The notes below the pieces were generated by a model. It had not been told where the DNA came from. It saw only the letters and a list, made by a program, of their open reading frames with translations, and did no database searches. Source: Squalus acanthias (lineage: Eukaryota). From it: DNA of 64,000 bases. How positions within the stretch are numbered: position 1 is the stretch's first letter; each line of letters opens with the position of its first letter. The translations under genes were made by a program, and so were the position numbers. Below, piece by piece: positions 11,286 through 26,425 of this stretch. The stretch lies in the NCBI GenBank assembly GCA_030390025.1, contig CM059432.1, forward strand, positions 97,404,001 through 97,468,000. The letters are read 5' to 3'.

Positions 11286-12208
11286 ATGACAGGGCAGTTG
11301 ATGTGTTGCAACTGCAGGATGTGGGAGCTCCTGGACACCAGTGTGATCCAGGACGAACACGTCTGCGGTAAGTGTCTGTGGCTCGAGGAGCTTTGGCTCA
11401 GAGTTGATGAGCTGGAGGCCGAGCTGCAGACACTGCGATGCATCAGGGAGGTGGAAAGTTAACTGGAAACTTTATTCCAGGAGGCAGTCACACCCCTTAG
11501 GATAGGGTCTTCTGATTTGGTCAGTGGTCAGGGACAGGAGGATGTGACTGCAAGTGAGGCAGGTATGGGGACCCAAGAGGTGGAGGAGCCTCAGCCTTTG
11601 CAATTGTCCAACAGGTTTGAGGTTCTTGCGGCCTGTATGGATGCAAGCAATGGCTGCAGGGTGGATGAGCAAACTGACCATGGCACCGTGGCACAGGAAA
11701 CCATTCAAGTGGGGGGGGGGGGGGGCAGTTAATAGGAATGTAGTGGTAATAGGGGACAGAGCAAGACTCCAGACGGCTGTGTTGCCTGCCCGGTGCCAGG
11801 GTTCAGGACATCTGCTCTGGGCTGGAGAGGAACTTGCAGTGGGAGGGGGAGGAGCCAGTGGTCATGGTCCACGTAGGTACCAACGACATAGGTAGAACTA
11901 GGAAAGAGGTTCTGCTGAGAGAGTATGAGTAGCTAGGGGCTAAATTAAAAAGCAGAACCTCAAGGGTAATAATGTCTGTATTATTACCTGAGACACGAGC
12001 AAATTGGCATAGGGTAAATAAAATTAGAGAGATGAAAGCGTGGCTCAAAGACTGGTGTGGGAGAAATGGGTTTTGATTCCTGGGGCACTGGCACCAGTAC
12101 TGAGGATAGTGGGATTTGTATCATTGGGACGGACTTCACCTGAACTGTGCTGGGACCAGTGTTCTGGCAAGTCATATAACTAGGGTGGTAGAGAGGGCTT
12201 TAAACTAA
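11286..12208 (+). pseudogene. CR1 ORF1 (zinc finger/leucine zipper plus SGNH/GDSL esterase), disrupted
   Basis: MTGQLMCCNCRMW...VCGKCLWLEELWLRVDELEAEL, VVVIGD, VHVGTNDIG, DGLHLN. Several stops and frameshifts. Confidence 0.8.
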
Positions 12209-12384
12209 ATAGTGGGGGCAAGGGATCAAATTTGGGAAGATGTGGTAAATCAAAGAGTAGAGACAAGGCAAGAGTGAAAACCATTAATATGGGAAATGAT
12301 AAACAGACCGTGACAGGCAGGGATAGAGAGTACAAATCTAAGAGTAAATCAACAGATAAGGCTAGAGGTTACAAAAATAATAAA

Positions 12385-15240
12385 AGGACAAAACTAAAGG
12401 CTCTCTATCTGAAGGCACGTAGCATTCGAAACAAAACAGATGAACTGATAGCGCAAATAGAAATACATAAGTACGATCTGATAACCATTACAGAAACATG
12501 GCTGCAGGATGACATAGATTGGTACCTAAATATTGAAGGGTACAGGACATTTAGGAAGGACAGGAAGCTAGGAAAAGGTGGAGGCGTGGCTCTGTTAATT
12601 AATGATGGTATTAGCACAATAGAGAGGGATGACCTAAGTTCAGGAAACCAGGATGTAGAAGCGGTTTGGGTAGAGATGAGAAATCATAAAGGCAAGAAGT
12701 TACTTGTGGGAGTGGTGTACAGGCCCCCTAACAGTAACCACACGGTAGGATGGAGTATTAAGGAAGAAATAATGGGAGCTTGTCAGAAAGGTATGGCAAT
12801 ACTCATGGGGTATTCTAATCTACATATAGACTGGAAAAATCAGATGGGCAAAGGTAGCCTAGATGAAGAGTTTATAGAATGTTTTTGGGATAGTTTCTTG
12901 GGACAGCACGTTCTGGAGCCAACCAGAGAGCAGGCTATACTAGACCTGGTATTGTACAACGAGATAGGATTAATTAATGACCTCATAGTGAAGGTGCCCC
13001 TAGGTAGCAGCGATCATAATATGATTGAATTTTACATTCAGTTTGAGGGAGAGAAGAGTGGGTCCAAGACTAGTATTTTAAACTTAAATAAGGGCAATTA
13101 TGAGGGCATGAAAGCAGAGCTAGCTAAAGTGAACTGGCAAATTAGGTTAAGGAATAGGTCAATAGAGTTGCAGTGGCAGACATTTAAGGGGATATTTCAA
13201 AATACACAGAATATATACATTCCAACGAGAAAGAAAAATTTCAAGGGGTGGACCCACCATCCGTGGTTAACTAAAAAAGTTAAAGATAGTATCAAACTTA
13301 AAGAAAAAGCATATAATTGCGAAAAGATGGGTGACAGGTCAGAAGATTGGACAGAATATAAAAAACAGCAAAGAATGACTAAAAGATGAATAAGGAGAGA
13401 AAAATTAGAGTACGAGAGAAAGCTAGCTAGAAATATAAAAAGATGAATAAGGAGAGAAAAATTAGAGTACGAGAGAAAGCTAGCTAGAAATATAAAAAGA
13501 TAGTAAGAGTTTCTATAGATATTTTAAAAAGAAAAGAGTTAACAAAGTGAGCGTTGGTCCTATAGAAAGTGAGTCTGGGGAATTAATAATGGAAAATAAG
13601 GAGATGGCAGTTGAATTGAACAGGTATTTTGCATCGGTCTTCACTATAGAAGATACAAGTAACATCCCAGAAATAGCTGTAAATCAGGAAATGGAAGGGA
13701 GGGAGGAACTCAAGAGAATTACAATCACCAGGGAAGTGGTACTGAGAAAATTGTTGGAGCTGTGGGCTGACAAGTCCCCGGGTCCTGATGGACTTCATCC
13801 TAGGGTCTTAAAAGAAGAGGCTAGTGAGACAGTTGATGCGTTGGTTTTAATTTTCCAAAATTCCCTAGATTCGGGGAAGGTTCCATTAAATTGGAAAATA
13901 GCGAATGTAACTCCTTTATTCAAAAAGGGAAGGAGACAGAAAGCAGGAAACTACAGGCCAGTTAGCTCAGCATCTGTCATAGGGAAGATGTTAGAAGCTA
14001 TTATTAAAGACGTTATAACAGGGCACTTAGAAAAGTTCAAGGTAATCAGGCAGAGTCAACATGGTTTTGTGAAAGGGAAATCATGTTTAAACAATTTATT
14101 GGAGTTCTTTGAGGAAGTAACATGTGCTGTGGATAAAGGGGAACTGGGGATGTACTGTACTTAGATTTCCAGAAGGCATTTGATAAGGTGCCATATTAAA
14201 GGTTATTGTGGAAAATAAAAGCTCATGGTGTATGGGGTAACATATTGGCATGGATAGAAGATTGGCTAGCTAACAGGAAACAGAGAGTAGGCATAAATGG
14301 GTCATTTTCTGGTTGGCAAGATGTAACGAGTGGTGTGCCACAGAGATCAGTGCTGGGGCCTCAACTTTTTACAATTTATATAAATGACTTGGATGAAGGG
14401 TCCGAAGGTATGGTTGCTAAATTTACTGATGACACAAAGATAGGTAGGAAAGTAAATTGTGAAGAGGACATAAGGAGGCTACAAAGGGATATAGATAGGT
14501 TAAGTGAGTGGGCAAAGATCTGACAAATAGAGTATAATGTGGGAAAATGTGAAATTGTCCATTTTGGCAGGAAGAATAAAAAAGAAGCATATTATCTAAA
14601 TGGTGAGAGATTGCAGAGCTCTGAGATGCAAAGGGATCTGGGTGTCCTCGTGCATGAATCGCAAAAGGTTAGTATGCAGGTACAGCAAGTAATTAGGAAA
14701 GCTAATAGAATGTTATCGTTTATTGCGAGGGAAATTGAAAACAAAAGTAGGGAGGTTATGCTTTAGTTATACAGGGCATTGGTGAGACCACATCTGGAGT
14801 ACTGTGTACAGTATTGGTCTCCTTATTTAAGGAAGGATGTAAATGTGTTGGAAGCAGTTTAGAGAAGGTTTACTAGACTAATACTTAGAATGGGCAGGTT
14901 GTCTTATGAGGAAAGGTTGGACAGGCTAGGCTTGTATCTGCTGGAGCTTAGAAGAGTAAGAGGTGACTTGATTGAAATATAAGATCCTGAGGGGTCTTGA
15001 CAGGGTGGATGTGGAGAGGATGTTCCCTCTTGTGGGAGAATCTAGAACTAGGGGTCACTGTTTAAAATAAGGGGTCGCCCATTCAAGACAGAGATGAGGA
15101 GAAATTTTTTCTCACAGAGGGTCGTGAGTCTTTGGAACTCTCTTCCTCAGAGGACGGTGGAAGCAAAGTCTTTGAATATTTTTAAGGCAGAGGTAGATAG
15201 ATTCTTGATCAGCAAGGGGGTGAAAGGTTATCGGGGGTAG
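12385..15240 (+). pseudogene. CR1 ORF2 (APE endonuclease plus reverse transcriptase), disrupted
   Basis: ITETWL, YRPP, SDH, KSPGPDG, NYRPVS, QHGF, GVPQRSVLGP, FTDD. Stops at 13387, 14521 and 14764, plus frameshifts. Confidence 0.9.
13381..13494 (+). repeat. Exact 57-bp tandem duplication in CR1 ORF2
   Basis: 13381-13437 equals 13438-13494, followed by aaaagat microhomology. Confidence 0.92.
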
Positions 15241-15417
15241 GCGGGAATGTGGAGCAATCAGATCAGCCATGATCTTATTGAATGGCAGAGCAGGCTCAAG
15301 AGGCCGAGTGGCCTACTCCTGCTCCTAATTCGTATGTACGTATGTTCCTGCACCACTTTTGAAATTGTACCATTTATTTCATATTGCCGCTCCTCATTCT
15401 TCCTACCAAAATATATC

Positions 15418-15632
15418 TGACGTAATAAAGACTCACTATGCACTTGAACATAAAGCAAGGCTTTAATCAACTTGTAACAAAACATGGAGGTCTAGTTAGC
15501 AGTCACTAGCTTCCTGTTTCCAGATTGTCTCTGCCCAAGGTGGGCCCATGCCTGAGTATTTATACTCCCTGGACGGCGCCCCAGCTGGCCGCCCAGTAGT
15601 ACTTCCTGAGTTGTTACTTGCGATTTATGACA
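15418..15632 (-). repeat. 3' LTR
   Basis: Direct repeat of 19715-19929, preceded on the minus strand by the polypurine tract AGGGAGGAAGAA (15633-15644). Confidence 0.97.
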
Positions 15633-15670
15633 TTCTTCCTCCCTAAAAGGTTTGGAAGTCCAGTCTTCCT

Positions 15671-18600
15671 TTAACGGACTAGGCGGACCAGAAATAGCCG
15701 CAGACGTTCAGCTCTCTGCTTGTGACTGGAAGGCACGTCTCCCCGGACCGTGTCCTGGTCCCTGGGTCGCTTGGCCCGTACCGGTAAGTCAGTAGAGTCT
15801 GCGTCATCTTGATCATCCTGTGGAGGACTGGGAATATCATGACTCCGGGTGCGGGTCCCCACAGGTGCTGAGCTGGCCTCATCCCGGGTCATGGCTGGAG
15901 ATTGTCCGGCGTCCTGGTTTCGGGTGGCCATCCTACGGGGAGCGTCCAGCTCCCTGAGTTGATCTGGTAGCGTTGCCGGCAGATCCCCCGATGTCCCAGG
16001 CGGGGCGTCATTTTCATAGGGGTGCGGAGTGTTGATATCATTGTCGGGGGATCCTTCATCATTCGGGCCCGTGTGACCGGTTGGGCAGGGAGCCAGATCT
16101 CGGAGCGAGACGGTGGTCTCCCGGCCATCAGGGTACCGTACGTGCGCATACGTGGGGTTTACCTCCGTTAACTCCACCTCGTCAACGAGAGGGTCGTTTT
16201 TGGCAGACCGGACGAACCTCCGGAGTAGTACCGGGCCTGGAGCCACCAACCATGACGGTAGAGACGTCACATGTGTAGAGCGACGCCGGAATTTGAAGAA
16301 TCGCTCATGAGGCGTGACATTAGTAGATGTGGAGAGAAGAGACCTGATAGAGTGTAACGCGTCGGGGAGCACCGTTTCCCACTGCTGGTCCGGCAGGTTG
16401 CGTGACCTTAGTGCCAGACGGACAGTGTTCCAGATGATGGCATTGTATCGTTCAACCTGTCCGTTACCGATTGGGTGATATGGTGTCGTCCAACTTGAGG
16501 CGATTCCCCGTTGGGAGAGATAACTTTTAAGTTCACTCGACATAAAGGAGGGACCCCGATCAGTGTGGATAAAATTGGCCGTCCCGCAAAGGGAAAAGAC
16601 CTGATCGAGGCATTTAATTACCGTAGAGGTAAGCATATTAGGGCAGGGGAAGGCGAAGGGAAAGCGTGAATACTCGTCCACCATCGTAAGTAGGTAGGTG
16701 TTCCTTGTCGACGAAGGCAATGGCCCTTTAAAGTCTATGCTGAGCCTCTGCATAGGCTGCATTGCATGTATGAGTAAGCCATCTGATGGGCGAAAGAATT
16801 GTGGTTTCAATTCTGCACAAATCCTACAGGAGGAGCATGTTTTCTTTACGTCCTCGGTTGAAAATGGTAGATTTTTGGAGCGCACAAAGTGCAACATGCG
16901 GGTCACACCAGGATGGCATAAGTCCATATGCAAATCCGCCAGAGTCGACGTTGACATTGAGGAGCAAAATGCCCGTGTGAAGGTATCTGGGGCCACGTTC
17001 TGTTTGCCGGGTCGGTAACAGATAGTATATCCAAAGGCAGCCAGCTCCATCCTCCAGAGTTGAATTTTATTATTTTTGATTTTCGTGCGCCTCCGGTTAT
17101 CCAACATGAAGGCCACAGAGCGCTGGTCAGTTATAAGCGTAAAATGACGCCGAGCAAGAAAATGACCCCATTGGCGTACAGCCTCGATGATGGCCGTAGC
17201 CTCCTTCTCGACAGGGGGGGTAATGGAGCTCGCTACCCTGCAAGGTTCTGGATAGGAATGCCACGGGTCGGCCACCTTGATTCAAGGTAGCGGAGATCGC
17301 CACCTCCGATGCATCGCATTCGACCACAAAAGGAAGATTTTCGTCAATGGAGCGAAGCGTGGCTTTCTCCAGCTGTCGTTTGAGGAGGTTGAAGGCAGAA
17401 ATAGCCGTAGCTTCCAATGGAAAAGACTTCGCATGGAGCAGGGGCTGTATTTTATCGGAGAAGTGTGGTATCCATTTTGCGTAATAAGCAAACATGCCAA
17501 GTGCCCGACGAAGAGAGCCGAGGTTCGTCGGGGGAGGGAGCTCCTGAAGTGGACGAAGTCGCTCTGGGTCCGGTTTAAGAACACCGTTGCCCACCCAGTA
17601 GCCAAGAATGTTCACCGATGGCACCGACTTCACCGATTTGGATTCGTTTAACGTTAAGTGGCGACGGCGGAGTACGTCAAAAAATCTCTGAAGATTGGCG
17701 TCATGCTCCTTTTGATCATGGCCGGCAATAGTGATATTGTCTAAATACGGAAAGGTATCCGTCAAGTTCTCTTGCCGGACTAGGCCATCCATGGCCCGTT
17801 GGAAGACGGCCACCCCATTGGTGACCCCGAATGGAAGGCGGCGAAACTGGAAAAGCCGACCATTGGCCTCAAAGGCCGTATACTTCTTGTCGGAGTCTTG
17901 CAGTGGCACCTGATGGTACGCGCTTTTTAAATCGAAGGTCGAGAATACCTTGTATTTGGCAAGGTTGTTGACCATGTCATCTATGCGTGGCAGCGGGTAG
18001 GCATCCAGATCGGTATATAGATTAATAGTCTGCGAATAATCGATACACAGACGTTTTTTTATGTTGTTTTAAGGGATTCCTCACGATGACGACCTGAGCC
18101 CGCCAGGGAGATGAACATGGCTCGATAATACCGTCGACTAAAAGGCGAGAGATTTCCGCCTCAATAAACGCTCGATCGTCTTGGCTAAAGCGCCGCGATT
18201 TGGTGGCTATGGGTTTACAGCGGGGGGGAAGATTGGCAAACAGGGAGGGTTCACCGAGTAAGGCCGCCGAGAGTGCACAAAACGGCACCTTAGAAATGGT
18301 AAGCTCCGGCCTTGACCCTCCAAACTCAAAAGTGATCTTCTTGTGCTGCTTCTGGAAGTCCTGTCCCAGAAGCACATCGCTGCATAAGTTTGCGAGTACT
18401 CCGAGCCGGGTGGAGAGATACGTGCGGCCGTTGAGGATGAGGTTGACCAGACAGAAGCCAGAAGAATTGGTGGTCAGAGTCGTCAGAGCCATTGCAATCT
18501 CCCTGTCCGAGGGATAAATGTGCAGTTTTAACCTGTTGACAGCCCGCTTACTAATGAAGCTGTCAGAGCTGCAGGAGTCGATTAGCGCGCTTAGAGTGTG

Positions 18601-19614
18601 CCCATTTACTGAAACCTTCGTGGCTGCATGGGACAAACTTTGGGGAAAAACAGCCGTGATGGGAGGAGGGGCAATTTTCCCTTCGGCAACTGTAGCCTTA
18701 ACAGTAGTTCTTGGGGGAGGAACAGCTCCATAGATAGCAGCTGTGAAGCTAACAGGAGCTCTCGACCGGTATACTTTAGAGGAGCGGCCTTTCTTGTTAG
18801 CAAAGGCCCGTGACTGGCATACCTTGGAAAAGTGTCCTTTCTTGCTGCAATGATTGCAGGTCACATTACGAGCCGGGCAAAATTTTCTGTGATGGCACGC
18901 CCCTCCACAAAAGAAACACTTTCTTCCTGATTGCCAGGATGCTGCTAGGGCGGGGTCGTCATCAGCGAAGGCCTCTAGGGTAGGGTCGTCGTCTGTTAGA
19001 GTAGAGTCAACATCAGTGGGGGCATCCGCCCGAGACCTACCGAAAGACTCATTAAAGGAGATAGCCGCCGCCCGTGCACGTGGTGGGAGATAAGTGTCTG
19101 CATTTTTCTTGGCCAAGTCCAAGGAACACGCCTGGTCATAAGCAGCCCGTAAATTGAGGGTTTTATTTTCCAGCAGGCGCTGACGTATAAAAGGGGACGC
19201 GATTCCATTGATAAAGGAATCGCGGATTAGTTCCTCTTGATACTGTTCAGCTGAAACTGCTTTAAGGTTACAATCCTTGCTGAGCCTGCGAAGTTTCTGG
19301 AGAAATTCATCGAGTGATTCCCCAGGCTACTGCCGAGTTGTGGCCAGTAGGTGTCGAGCAAAGATTTCATTTGGGGACTTGACATATAGCTGCTGTAAGA
19401 TTTCGATAGCAGTGTCATAGTCTATACAGTCCTCAATATAATCATACACATGAGGAGACACGTAGTTGATAAGCATTCGTAACTTATTAGGGACATCCGC
19501 CCCACATTCTTCAAGAAAGTTGCTAAAGGTACGAAACCAATGCTTCCATACCTTTGCTGCCGCAGGTGCATTCGGGTCCAGGTCGAGACGAGCGGGTCTA
19601 AGGAGTTTTTCCAT
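15671..19614 (-). pseudogene. Single gag-pol polyprotein with three disablements (stop at 19327, +1 frameshifts at ~18056 and ~17217)
   Basis: Two CCHC knuckles, protease LIDSC, RT DLKSAYHQ/PFG/YLDN, RNase H CDAS..EKEA..TDQ, integrase HHCC plus DDE (IDF, TDRG, GQVER). No chromodomain seen. Confidence 0.93.
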
Positions 19615-19700
19615 GATGGATCAGTTTCTTGCCCAAGTTCCCTTCTGTGGTTCGAGTTGCAGCTGGTTGTTCCGAATCACCCAAAGCGTGGAGACGATAT

Positions 19701-19713
19701 CAAGTTGATTAAA
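19701..19713 (-). promoter_or_regulatory. Non-tRNA primer-binding-site position, complementary to LTR 19759-19771
   Basis: TTTAATCAACTTG starts 1 nt after the 5' LTR. There is no TGG start. It is a perfect 13-bp complement of CAAGTTGATTAAA in the LTR. Confidence 0.75.
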
Positions 19714-19714
19714 T

Positions 19715-19929
19715 TGACGTAATAAAGACTCACTACGCACTTGAACATAAAGCAAGGCTTTAATCAACTTGTAACAAAACATGGAGGTCTAGTTAGCAGT
19801 CACTAGCTTCCTGTTTCCAGATTGTCTCTGCCCAAGGTGGGCCCATGCCTGAGTATTTATACTCCCTGGACGGCGCCCCAGCTGGCCGCCCAGTAGTACT
19901 TCCTGAGTTGTTACTTGCGATTTATGACA
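19715..19929 (-). repeat. 5' LTR with TATA box (19854-19861) and ATTAAA poly(A) signal (19759-19764)
   Basis: Minus strand reads TGTCAT...TATAAATA...CAAGTTGATTAAA...ACGTCA. Confidence 0.95.
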
Positions 19930-20493
19930 ATATCACTTCACACTTCTCTGCATTAATTTTCATCTGCCATGTGTCTGCCCATTTCACCAGTCTGTCTATG
20001 TCCTCCTGAAGTCTGTTACTATCCATCTCATTGTTTACTATATTTCTGAGTTTTGTATCCTCTGCAAACTTTGAAATTATGCCCTGTATACCCACATCCA
20101 GGTTATTAATATATAATCAAAAAGAGCAGTGGTCCCAACACTGACCCCTGGGGAACACCACTGTGTGCTTCTCTCCATTCTGAAAAACAACCGTTTACCA
20201 CTACTCTCTGCTTTCTGCAACTTAGTCAATTTTGTATCCATGCTGCCATTGTCCCATTAATCCCATGGGCTTTAATTATGCTAACAAATCTATTGTGTGA
20301 TACTTTGTCAAACACCTTTTGAAAGTCCATATACATAACATCAACCACACTACCCTCATCAACCCTCTCCGTTACTTCATCAAAGAACTCAATCAAGTTA
20401 GTCAAACATGATTTGCCTTTAACAAATCCATGCTGACTTTCATTTATTGGCCCATACTTTTCTAAATGCCAATTAATTTTGTCCTGGATTATT

Positions 20494-23625: not shown

Positions 23626-24273
23626 ATTAGAGAAGGTTGTTTATGAACACTTCAGTGGAAAACAAATAAAACACCTTAATGCTGAACATGCAGGACAATA
23701 CATACCCCAGGTCAGCAAGCTAAAAGTAAACAATTGTGATCCTAAATGGGTTAACAAGCCAATACAAGTGACATAAAGAGGAAAAAGGCTTCTACAAATC
23801 TTGCAGGGAGATAGGGGAAGGAGTTCACTAGAACAAATATAGGAACATGGGAGTAAATATTCATTTTCACCACTTGGCTGAGCAGATCACCCACCCATTA
23901 TAGAACTCATCCAATTTTCATCCCATTGATTTCTTTCCCAATAATATTCAAAATTAATACTTCCTCAAAGTATTCACAAGGGAAGACATTAACAACATGC
24001 CCTCCTCCAGAAAACAGCACTAAGCTAAAATGTATGAATTTGATATAAATTAAATCAATGTCCTAAACATGCTGATAGGGCTTGAAATAAATAAATCCAC
24101 TGGCTTAGGTGGTACATATTCCAGTGTGCTGAGAAAGACTAGGCAGAAGATTTGTGAGACATTGAGAGTCACTGGATACTGGAAATGATGCGGAGATGCC
24201 GGTGTTGGACTGGGGTGGACAAAAATGAGAAGTCGCACAACACCAGGTTATAGTCCAACAGTTTTATTTGAAA

Positions 24274-24310
24274 TCACGAGCTTTCGGAGCGCTGCTCCTT
24301 CGTCAGGTAA
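24274..24310 (-). ncRNA. Minimal type I hammerhead ribozyme (mirror copy)
   Basis: Exact reverse complement of 24539-24575. Confidence 0.85.
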
Positions 24311-24538
24311 AGTGAGGGAATACAAATCAGCAAAGCATATATAGACAGAGAACAATGTGTTTCTGACTGCCCTCCATCGCACCTCGGCAGAGATACAATC
24401 AGTCAGGAAGGCATTACATCATGTCTTTGACGTAATGCCTTCCTGACTGATTGTATCTCTGCCGAGGTGTGATGGAGGGCAGTCAGAAACACATTGTTCT
24501 CTGTCTATATATGCTTTGCTGATTTGTATTCCCTCACT

Positions 24539-24575
24539 TTACCTGACGAAGGAGCAGCGCTCCGAAAGCTCGTGA
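24539..24575 (+). ncRNA. Minimal type I hammerhead ribozyme
   Basis: TTAC-CTGACGA-A-GGAGC(agc)GCTCC-GAA-AGCT-C-GTGA. Predicted cleavage after 24571. Confidence 0.85.
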
Positions 24576-26425
24576 TTTCAAATAAAACTGTTGGACTATA
24601 ACCTGGTGTTGTGCGACTTCTCATTTTTGGATACTGGAAAGACATCAGTAGATTCGAAACTAGCAAATACGGTGCCATTATTCAAAAAGGGTGATGGAAC
24701 AGAGTCACAGGCAACTACAGACCTTATTAAATAATGGAAGCAATTATCAAGAGTACATTTGAGGATTATCTGCACCACAGCAACCTAGTAAACTGCAGTC
24801 AACAAAGCTTCAAAGGAGGAACATCCTGCTGGACTAATTTCCCTGATTTCTTTGAGGAAGTGGCAATCCAAGTGGATCATGGTAAACATTACGGCATTGT
24901 GTACTTTAGACTTCCAAAGGCCACCAGCAGCTTCTCCTGGTCACTCATTCTATGTGGGTCACCTAGTGCAAAGCCTTTGGCTCACTCTATATTTCTCCCC
25001 AAATGGATATCTCTGGGCTAATGCTTCTGAAAGAGTGAGTGACATTCTGTGCTCTGAAGTGCTAGCAGGGCTGATTTACTGCTGACTGGTTCTGATTCCT
25101 CTGGCACATCTGAAGTTGGAAAAAAAAGAGAGGTTAGAATGTGCTGCTGAGGAGAACAGTTCACTTGTCACTTTCAATACGAGTAACATGAGGGTTTCAT
25201 GATATAGCTTGTAGACAGATAGTGCAGGATTCCGTAAGCAGGATGCTTACTGCAGCTGGCACTTGCTACCCTACCATCACCACCTCCCTAGGATTTGATG
25301 AGCTTATTCCTCATAGGGAGTGAGAAGGCAGAGACTTGGGGGCCTGTCACCTGTTGCATTTCTCACTCTGGTATTAGAGGTCTTCTCCTTGAAAACCACG
25401 ATATGCAGCAAAACGTAAGGGTCAGCAGGCATCTCATAATGTGTGTGAGAATAGGTGCATGCATCAAGCAATTACATTGAGTGAGGTTTTTAGTAGAGTG
25501 AAGTAAGAGGCTTTCAAGGGCACTGTACTGCCTTCTGGACATTGATGATAAGCATTTCAAGCAGTTTAACGTAGTTTGAGGTAAGGTCATTGTAAGTGGG
25601 AGACTTGTTTAGACTAGTGCATTATTAGAAGGTGTAGCTATCTCCTTTTACCTTGCTCGACCTGGCAAGGTCATTACATTTTGTCTGGTGCAGAGTTGCA
25701 TGGGGCGTTGTTGCTGGCATGGACTATCATGGCCACCTCATTCTATTGCCCCTGAGCAGCTCTTCTTAATACCATGCAGTGCTCTGTGTCAAATAAGGCC
25801 TTCCTCCTTTGCGTTACTTTATCCAGCAGCACATCAACAGCTCCAATTCAAAATCTGGAGCCTTCCTGCAGTTCTCCAAGATATCTTTTGCAAAGAAACC
25901 TTTATGCTTTCCTTCTGAACCATTTTGGTTGATGACTGCACCATTAAACTGTTGCAGGCCTTTAAGTCCTGCAGCAGCACATTAATTCCTATCTCCCCAC
26001 TCAGTCATGGTGCTGATGCCTGAGCTCACTCTGGAAACTATCACTGAGCCAGCTCACATCACATCAAGTGGGTATGAATCATGCACTGCCCTACATCCAT
26101 TCTCAATTCTGTCTGAGTGAAAAATCTGATCTTTAGTGTGTTCATTCCACCTGTCCAAATCTGCACCTTGAGCTATGCCAACCATGGAAAATTGAGTACA
26201 AGCAGCACACTTTTATTTGAGGTTGTCTGAAACGTGCTTTTAACTGCCCACACATTGGAAAATCAAGGCTATTGTTTCCAGCAAATTTGCTGTATTCCAG
26301 TAACAGGTGAACACTCATCATATTTAGGATGGAGTGAGATCACAAGTAACATCAGAAACCAAACTCCAGGTTTATTTAAAGCTCTACTACTCCTGGAGAT
26401 ACATCTTTGTGACATTTAAGTCAAT

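Follow-up and report, generated by a model that had tools for sequence, protein, structure and literature searches.

A Ty3/Gypsy retrotransposon of Squalus acanthias with a primer binding site complementary to its own LTR, and evidence for probable self-priming in a non-chromovirus animal clade

Structure of the element and its family in the host genome

The window, which is the whole stretch of 64,000 nucleotides of Squalus acanthias DNA that was analysed, contains an LTR retrotransposon on its minus strand (Table 1). The TG...CA LTRs, the target site duplication (TSD), the polypurine tract (PPT) and the PR-RT-RH-IN domain order are those of a Ty3/Gypsy LTR retrotransposon. The window copy is broken by a stop in gag (19329-19327) and by frame breaks near 18050 and 17210; an open frame of 1315 aa is present in many family copies. 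A search with the Pfam Chromo model found no chromodomain in the window integrase or in any of the six relatives scanned, in agreement with the sequence-only reading made before this analysis. The sequence flanking the element (19930-20300 and 15100-15417) we take to be a decayed minus-strand LINE, interrupted in its RT region, and an endonuclease-RT copy, presumably LINE-like as well, lies on the plus strand at 12184-14523. The window also carries an inverted repeat (202 nt, 99% complementary, arms 6 nt apart) at 24220-24629.

The host genome (G000) contained 1136 candidate loci of the family of the window element (own family), and all 40 scored matches were identical over 330 nt. Among 80 fetched copies, 70 were full-length with ~98-99% identity, and a 5-bp TSD was found in 58 of the 64 copies that could be scored for it. 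Protein searches of the same genome with the gag and RT of relatives generated 150 matches each, and all 110 gag matches that were fetched belonged to the own family. The element is young and high-copy, and belongs to a compact animal clade of Ty3/Gypsy retrotransposons outside the chromoviruses. Two pairs of loci in the same orientation and ~4.29 kb apart (G000 C4:938041 and 942336; C5:93134929 and 93139215) are probable tandem elements sharing an LTR.

Two further Gypsy families of this genome were used for comparison. The sister family, 76% identical in DNA to the own family, gave 1601 LTR motif matches and, with a different motif, 274 LTR-PBS junctions. Its LTR matches are mostly solo LTRs, and a normal primer binding site (PBS) with leader was present in none of the 30 fetched (L408-L437). 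The GC box plus the TATAAATA block is conserved between the own and sister families. The control family (L282) is tRNA-primed, with a TGG PBS and a 1335-aa frame. The LTR of this second young Gypsy family (L282, L301, L332-L391) apparently ends in AAAA, not CA, and the family carries a variable 22-nt tandem duplication. Several gag-pol loci with an extra long downstream frame (L283-L300) are likely endogenous retroviruses.

Table 1. Features of the retrotransposon in the window
Feature	Position	Strand	Remarks
5′ LTR	19715..19929	-	215 nt, TG...CA, 3′ end ACGTCA
3′ LTR	15418..15632	-	215 nt; one mismatch to 5′ LTR
TSD GATAT	19930..19934; other copy 15413-15417	-	5 bp
PBS position	19701..19713	-	13-mer that pairs with the LTR of the same element; lacks TGG
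LTR segment complementary to PBS	19759..19771	-	Pairing and covariation
Putative self-primer	19771-19760	-	12 nt; ends placed by the toggle and the aberrant insertions
Putative cut	between 19760 and 19759	-	Aberrant insertions
First base past the helix	19700	-	Recurrent A/G site, taken to mark where the primer's plus-strand copy stops
ATTAAA	19759..19764	-	Sole canonical poly(A) hexamer of the LTR; overlaps helix and putative cut; candidate signal
Predicted pair of small stems within the 45-nt loop	19718..19756	-	19756-19753/19743-19740; 19737-19730/19725-19718; MFE fold
GC box	19891-19886	-	Common to sister family only; candidate promoter element
TATAAA	19861-19856	-	Common to sister family only; candidate promoter element
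Predicted hairpin, then CCA (A at 19782)	19782..19811	-	Retained with a different loop in sister family; candidate upstream RNA start; end point of three sister-family aberrant insertions
gag-PR-RT-RH-IN frame, no chromodomain	15671..19614	-	Window copy broken
Polypurine tract	15633..15643	-	Ends AA before 3′ LTR
3′ LTR copy of the 13-mer	15462..15474	-	Same 13-mer as 19771-19759

Pairing of the PBS position with the LTR

The 5′ LTR end ACGTCA is followed by A-TTTAATCAACTTG, and no TGG is present. The 13-mer at 19713-19701 is the exact complement of LTR positions 19771-19759 (3′ copy at 15474-15462), which confirms the initial observation that the element has no tRNA PBS and that the sequence after its LTR pairs perfectly with the LTR itself. 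None of 5000 Markov-resampled LTRs exceeded a self-complement of 11 bp, against 13 bp for the window helix, and the best self-complement of the control family L282 was 5 bp. The predicted probability of each helix pair was 0.51-1.0, whatever start point was tried. The 45-nt loop and the two small stems drawn in it by the sequence-only reading were both present in the MFE fold; as drawn, the stems are family-specific and have weak support across families. TATAAA begins at 19861, 90 nt upstream of 19771, and the distance of about 80 nt given previously was too short.

Covariation of the helix across the clade

The RT of the element matched 1734 proteins at E ≤ 1e-30, and the named hosts among the 120 matches listed were shrimps, a copepod, a soft coral, a sea anemone, a tunicate, a nematode, a ray and a catshark. 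The window RT (17130-18068) was 76-77% identical to some relatives and 62-63% identical to those of the ray and the catshark (P0001-P0003, P0101 and P0116 were compared), and it grouped with metagenome locus L031. This pattern of identity may reflect horizontal transfer.

From 80 metagenome loci, 29 were examined upstream of gag; one more duplicated another, and the rest lacked that region. A helix at the LTR end was found in 23 of the 29. The six loci without a helix show no recognisable LTR end in the available DNA, one of them (L107) having an LTR start but no helix. The 23 helix-bearing loci collapsed to 15 families, or 16 with the window family, and were scored with the helix register fixed at the CA of the LTR. 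Helix positions 4-10 were paired in 16 of 16 families. Over positions 4-13, 154 of 160 cells were paired, compared with a mean of 104 and a maximum of 130 in 20000 permutations, which ignore relatedness among families. The count of concerted changes on a tree, unlike the permutation, takes relatedness into account: on the RH-IN tree (median protein identity 56%), positions 4-9 underwent 17 changes on each side, all of them concerted. A double compensatory change also distinguishes L038 and L040, two copies of one family. Compensatory covariation had been proposed as a check on self-priming, and these results support self-priming without tRNA.

Helix length ranged from 10 to 18 bp over the families, with a mode of 13; pairing reached 18-19 bp in two families, and the excess of pairing extended to position 16 (11 of 16 families against 4.8 expected). 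L045 has an unpaired position 1. The helix has a conserved TAA(A) at its 3′ end, followed by RCC in 15 of 16 families; position 10 is G in all 16 families, and position 11 is A in 14 of 16. A splice-acceptor reading of this fixed AG was rejected, since the unspliced sequence pairs perfectly and two of the 16 families have TG. An RCC...GGY hairpin past the cut was visible in most families and reached P < 0.05 in only four of 16. LTR length in the clade ranged from 80 to 358 nt, the shortest being that of L055, in which 37 nt lie upstream of the helix. L055 also has a duplicated PBS-leader segment.

A TATA at -90 was present in one of the 16 families, plus the sister family. The proposal that the helix hides the 5′ poly(A) signal finds partial support: ATTAAA is the sole canonical hexamer of the window LTR, and across the clade a canonical hexamer (AATAAA or ATTAAA) occurs in only eight of 16 families. 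The helix is thus found throughout the clade, whereas the arguments from the poly(A) hexamer and the TATA box apply to part of it only.

Aberrant insertions and the 3′ end of the primer

Five independent aberrant insertions, four of the sister family and one of the own family, were flanked by an exact 5-bp TSD (four) or by a TSD with one mismatch (one). In these insertions the minus-sense U5 copy runs to the GC after ATTAAA and then has one extra T (four) or three T (one). After this stop, a template switch leads into a copy of the U5 end, then of the primer region, and on into U3. The five insertions look like products of minus strong-stop DNA that ended at a cut template end and then folded back. 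As the extra T is unexplained by homology in three of the five, the cut was placed between 19760 and 19759, and the cut at the 3′ end of the helix is likely ATTAA^A. A cut at this position fits the unpaired position 1 in L045 and leaves two bases before CA, as the PPT leaves AA before TG. The primer would accordingly be 12 nt long in the own family and 11 nt in the sister family. The sequence-only reading had set the cut right after ATTAAA; its location at the 3′ end of the helix is supported by the five insertions, and the exact site is likely one base earlier.

In a second class of insertions (L446, L480, L516, L508-L510), a complete LTR with its PBS runs on into minus-sense R/U3; the copy of the PBS is thus shown to be a DNA 3′ end able to pair with the 12/13-mer. 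In a third class, from the sister family (L517-L519; exact TSD in two), the minus DNA crosses the primer region and ends ~10 nt upstream of the helix, at a conserved CCATGTT that resembles the integrase end motif. Integrated snap-back or palindromic LTR products were observed at L439, L446, L472, L480, L500, L508-L511 and L516-L520, many with an exact 5-bp TSD. Such snap-back insertions are fossils of failed strand transfers and could be used to map reverse-transcription intermediates in any young family.

A recurrent A/G site and the 5′ end of the primer

Position 19700, the first base past the helix, carried G in 15 copies of one set of 77 and in 5 of another set of 30 (20/107), and never C or T; the count leaves out 40 copies that were selected for identity. 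The 13 G carriers among 70 full copies were scattered over haplotypes, with a maximum r2 of 0.19, compared with 0.46-0.94 for internal sites with at least 16 carriers. Parsimony required 12 steps for the 13 carriers (leave-one-out), or nine steps on the whole-element tree. Among the unlinked sites of the element this toggle has the highest frequency, and three further sites (9, 9 and 7 carriers) are fully homoplastic too. LTR position 145 (window 19785 and 15488) showed a recurrent, unlinked change of T to G in 12 of 70 copies, confined to one LTR in 11 of the 12 (8 in the 3′ LTR).

The sister family has its toggle at position 13 (G in 38 and A in 24 of 62 copies, r2 0.13), and its positions 10-12 are fixed in 61 of the 62 copies. 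These were the copies with a normal leader among 70; the eight set aside comprised five inverted junctions, one chimera and two that missed the leader filter. In this older family r2 is 0.18-0.28 at several non-CpG sites, and site 13 is correspondingly less outstanding there. Three sister copies have an extra A at the toggle site. No unlinked site was found beside the PBS in the tRNA-primed control family (41 full copies of 60), which speaks against a general artefact, yet provides no positive control for the method. A cap-derived C past the helix was seen in 0 of 107 own-family and 0 of 62 sister-family copies, a count in which mismatch filtering could hide such a C.

The helix of the sister family is 12 bp, one base shorter than that of the own family, and the toggle moves by one base with it; we read the toggle as a trace of the primer end. 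In the simplest reading, plus strong-stop DNA would copy the primer to a blunt 5′ end, where RT would add an untemplated purine. Untemplated additions are found in Tf1 cDNA. A ratchet model, with the helix growing by untemplated purines as far as the next purine of the LTR, was rejected because an unpaired pyrimidine follows the end of nine of the 17 helices.

Proposed mechanism and alternatives

The element likely primes its own reverse transcription with a ~12-nt piece of its 5′ LTR RNA. That this piece is the start of the transcript, by analogy with Tf1, is the reading we favour, at about even odds. Under this scheme, the genomic RNA would start at or beside 19771, at an initiator-like YNAGY, and its first bases would pair with the PBS. 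The RNase H of the element would cut near ATTAA^A and thereby generate a 3′-OH two bases from the CA of the LTR, matching the AA at the PPT end. Minus strong-stop DNA would end at the cut and jump via the short remaining R, and plus strong-stop DNA would copy the primer to its 5′ end, RT adding an untemplated purine. The PBS would be rewritten from the primer in each cycle, which would explain the lock-step covariation. Where the hexamer is the poly(A) signal, its 5′ copy would be buried and cut.

A start at the helix is favoured by the fixed G10/A11 in a YNAGY context, which is like the INR TCAKTY in the available text of PMC3601003, and Tf1, whose first 11 bases serve as primer after a cut by RNase H, provides a precedent for priming with the transcript start (accessible part of PMC7175516). 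The TATA position is not shared across families and the LTR of L055 is only 80 nt; these features, with the YNAGY at the helix start, also undercut the earlier argument for an internal primer, which was based on the distance to the TATA box. Against a start at the helix, in 11 of 17 families the pairing begins at its 5′ end with a pyrimidine, an unusual start base for Pol II. The lack of a cap-derived C, the pairing excess to position 16, the conservation of the GC box and TATAAATA, and the three aberrant insertions ending ~10 nt upstream count on the same side. No RNA starts or poly(A) joints were visible in the contigs (depths and loose ends), and a search of viral contigs gave one unrelated weak match.

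The same self-primer might instead be excised inside the leader, the RNA starting near 19782 or 19830 (from the TATA) and both helix ends being cut or trimmed to leave an uncapped 12-mer, a possibility that we consider somewhat less likely and that comes nearest to the sequence-only reading. Several of the features just named would suit such an excision: the GC box and TATA block are conserved in both families of the host genome, no cap-copy C was seen past the helix, and the excess pairing reaches position 16, with helices of 18-19 bp. In addition, the primer starts with C preceded by A in the own and sister families, and the three insertions in which minus DNA passes through an uncut primer region to the conserved CCATGTT would fit a start near 19782. 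However, those upstream ends resemble the integrase end motif and may be a selected subset of heterogeneous ends or of RT pauses at the hairpin, relatives do not share the TATA position, L055 leaves just 37 nt for an upstream start, and excision would need a second nuclease step, for which no precedent was found in the available text of the literature surveyed. The broader proposal that a widespread animal Gypsy clade evolved self-priming apart from chromoviruses, that two cuts, one through the poly(A) hexamer, excise the primer inside the leader, that one helix serves both for primer production and for silencing of the 5′ poly(A) signal, and that both cut sites are recorded in the genome by untemplated bases and snap-back insertions appears rather unlikely when taken as a whole. 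The sequence-only reading had allowed the primer to come from either R copy. A primer from the 3′ R (15474-15462), on the same or a second RNA and cut at the poly(A) hexamer, would have the identical 13-mer, and in insertions L480 and L508-L510 the PBS is followed by U3 and internal 3′ sequence, so that the PBS copy can pair with 3′ R. Yet in five insertions the 5′ cut site is where minus DNA terminates, which means that the 5′ template is cut; the primer appears to be blunt at its 5′ end, the local hairpin would out-compete a distant partner, and the cut of cleavage and polyadenylation falls 10-30 nt beyond the hexamer and not at it. An origin in the 5′ R is thus supported, and one in the 3′ R is highly improbable.

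Priming by a host tRNA fragment or another small RNA, with the helix merely hiding the 5′ poly(A) signal, would agree with the canonical hexamer in eight of 16 families. The screen of the 13-mer against tRNA genes, suggested at the outset, scored 63 genes, of which 30 were fetched and 13 typed, all Lys(TTT) or Cys(GCA), a set too narrow to exclude all tRNA halves; within it, the longest word shared on the sense strand was 5 nt. A 7-nt word shared with a tRNA stretch was rejected because it is not on the sense strand. The absence of TGG, the change of the PBS in step with the LTR across families, the retention of the helix where the hexamer is no known signal, and the ending of minus DNA at the helix and not at an upstream start make an external primer very doubtful. 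It would be equally surprising if A-to-I editing where the duplex ends, or an error of assembly, had produced the toggle, in which case self-priming would stand and the 5′ end of the primer would be unmapped. A to G on the sense strand is an editing signature, and another recurrent site exists at LTR position 145. On the other hand, the toggle shifts when helix length changes and has differing contexts in the two families, adenosines within the duplex show single changes only, three sister copies have an added A, and the toggle site has a G on its 5′ side, which disfavours A-to-I editing.

Comparison with known self-priming elements

'Selfy' is presumably a self-priming Gypsy lineage of Repbase and may be the clade described here. 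A literature search, with Repbase and subscription journals outside its range, found no paper on 'Selfy' plus Gypsy and no report of self-priming in a non-chromovirus animal Gypsy clade. PMC12440569 and PMC10886601, which draw on Repbase, do not name Selfy in their available text. The unnamed MolGy clades in the available text of PMC6238403 may include this clade; its motif was not found in the supplement files searched of PMC6238403 and PMC8556966. Prior description of the clade, for example in Repbase or subscription journals, is quite possible.

In the literature surveyed, self-priming was tested only in fission-yeast Tf1 and otherwise predicted for relatives of Tf1 among the chromoviruses and for one lineage of Copia. 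A large non-chromovirus self-priming clade in cnidarians, crustaceans, a tunicate, a nematode and cartilaginous fishes would show that cleavage of RNA duplexes by RTs was gained repeatedly, and self-primed elements would be expected to escape silencing by tRNA fragments. New here is the base-level, genome-internal evidence for both ends of the primer, and the reading of reverse-transcription intermediates from recurrent errors of young repeat families is reusable elsewhere.

As far as the available texts go, Tf1 uses its first 11 bases as primer once RNase H has cut (PMC7175516; PMC4600332; PMC5341516), the Tf1/sushi group is chromoviral with a three-duplex 'pretzel' (bioRxiv 10.1101/2022.12.06.519325), and Skipper and GalEa are without such a complement (PMC5006619; PMC5445492). 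The accessible part of PMC6317226 predicts self-priming from LTR-PBS complementarity for Tcn1 chromoviruses and for TAR (Houba, Osr-1) plant Copia elements, the latter showing that self-priming arose outside chromoviruses, and reports plant non-chromovirus Gypsy as tRNA-primed. The present clade shares the self-priming prediction with Tcn1 and TAR and differs from them in lineage and hosts.

Like Tf1/Tf2 of Schizosaccharomyces pombe, Tj1, Tosmo and the Tf1/sushi group, the element has no tRNA site and a PBS complementary to a short LTR segment. Its putative primer of 11-12 nt is similar in size to that of Tf1 (11 nt in the available text of PMC7175516), and it shares with the Tf1/sushi group a single gag-pol frame and a cut at the duplex end, here deduced from aberrant insertions. 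Unlike that group, this clade is without a chromodomain and has a conserved TAA(A)-RCC cut context, the fixed G10 and short LTRs (80-358 nt). A crude test on short A+T-rich segments showed no excess of a leader-loop duplex of the 'pretzel' kind (P 0.17-0.98 in 16 families). In the host genome, a chromovirus outgroup was sought, and 16 of 16 chromodomain matches were without an adjacent integrase.

The tRNA-primed family L282 has, like the window element, a short LTR and a single frame, and the two gags align over their full length, including the double Cys-His knuckle; identity is 27% over 1078 columns. L282 differs in its TGG PBS and its best self-complement of 5 bp, and its RT is only ~29% identical. 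The Mag lineage is characterized by a tRNA PBS starting with TGG and a gag with a double Cys-His knuckle. From its gag features we take L282 to be Mag-like; the window element has the double knuckle and lacks the TGG PBS. Self-priming in this clade may have originated independently of that in chromoviruses.
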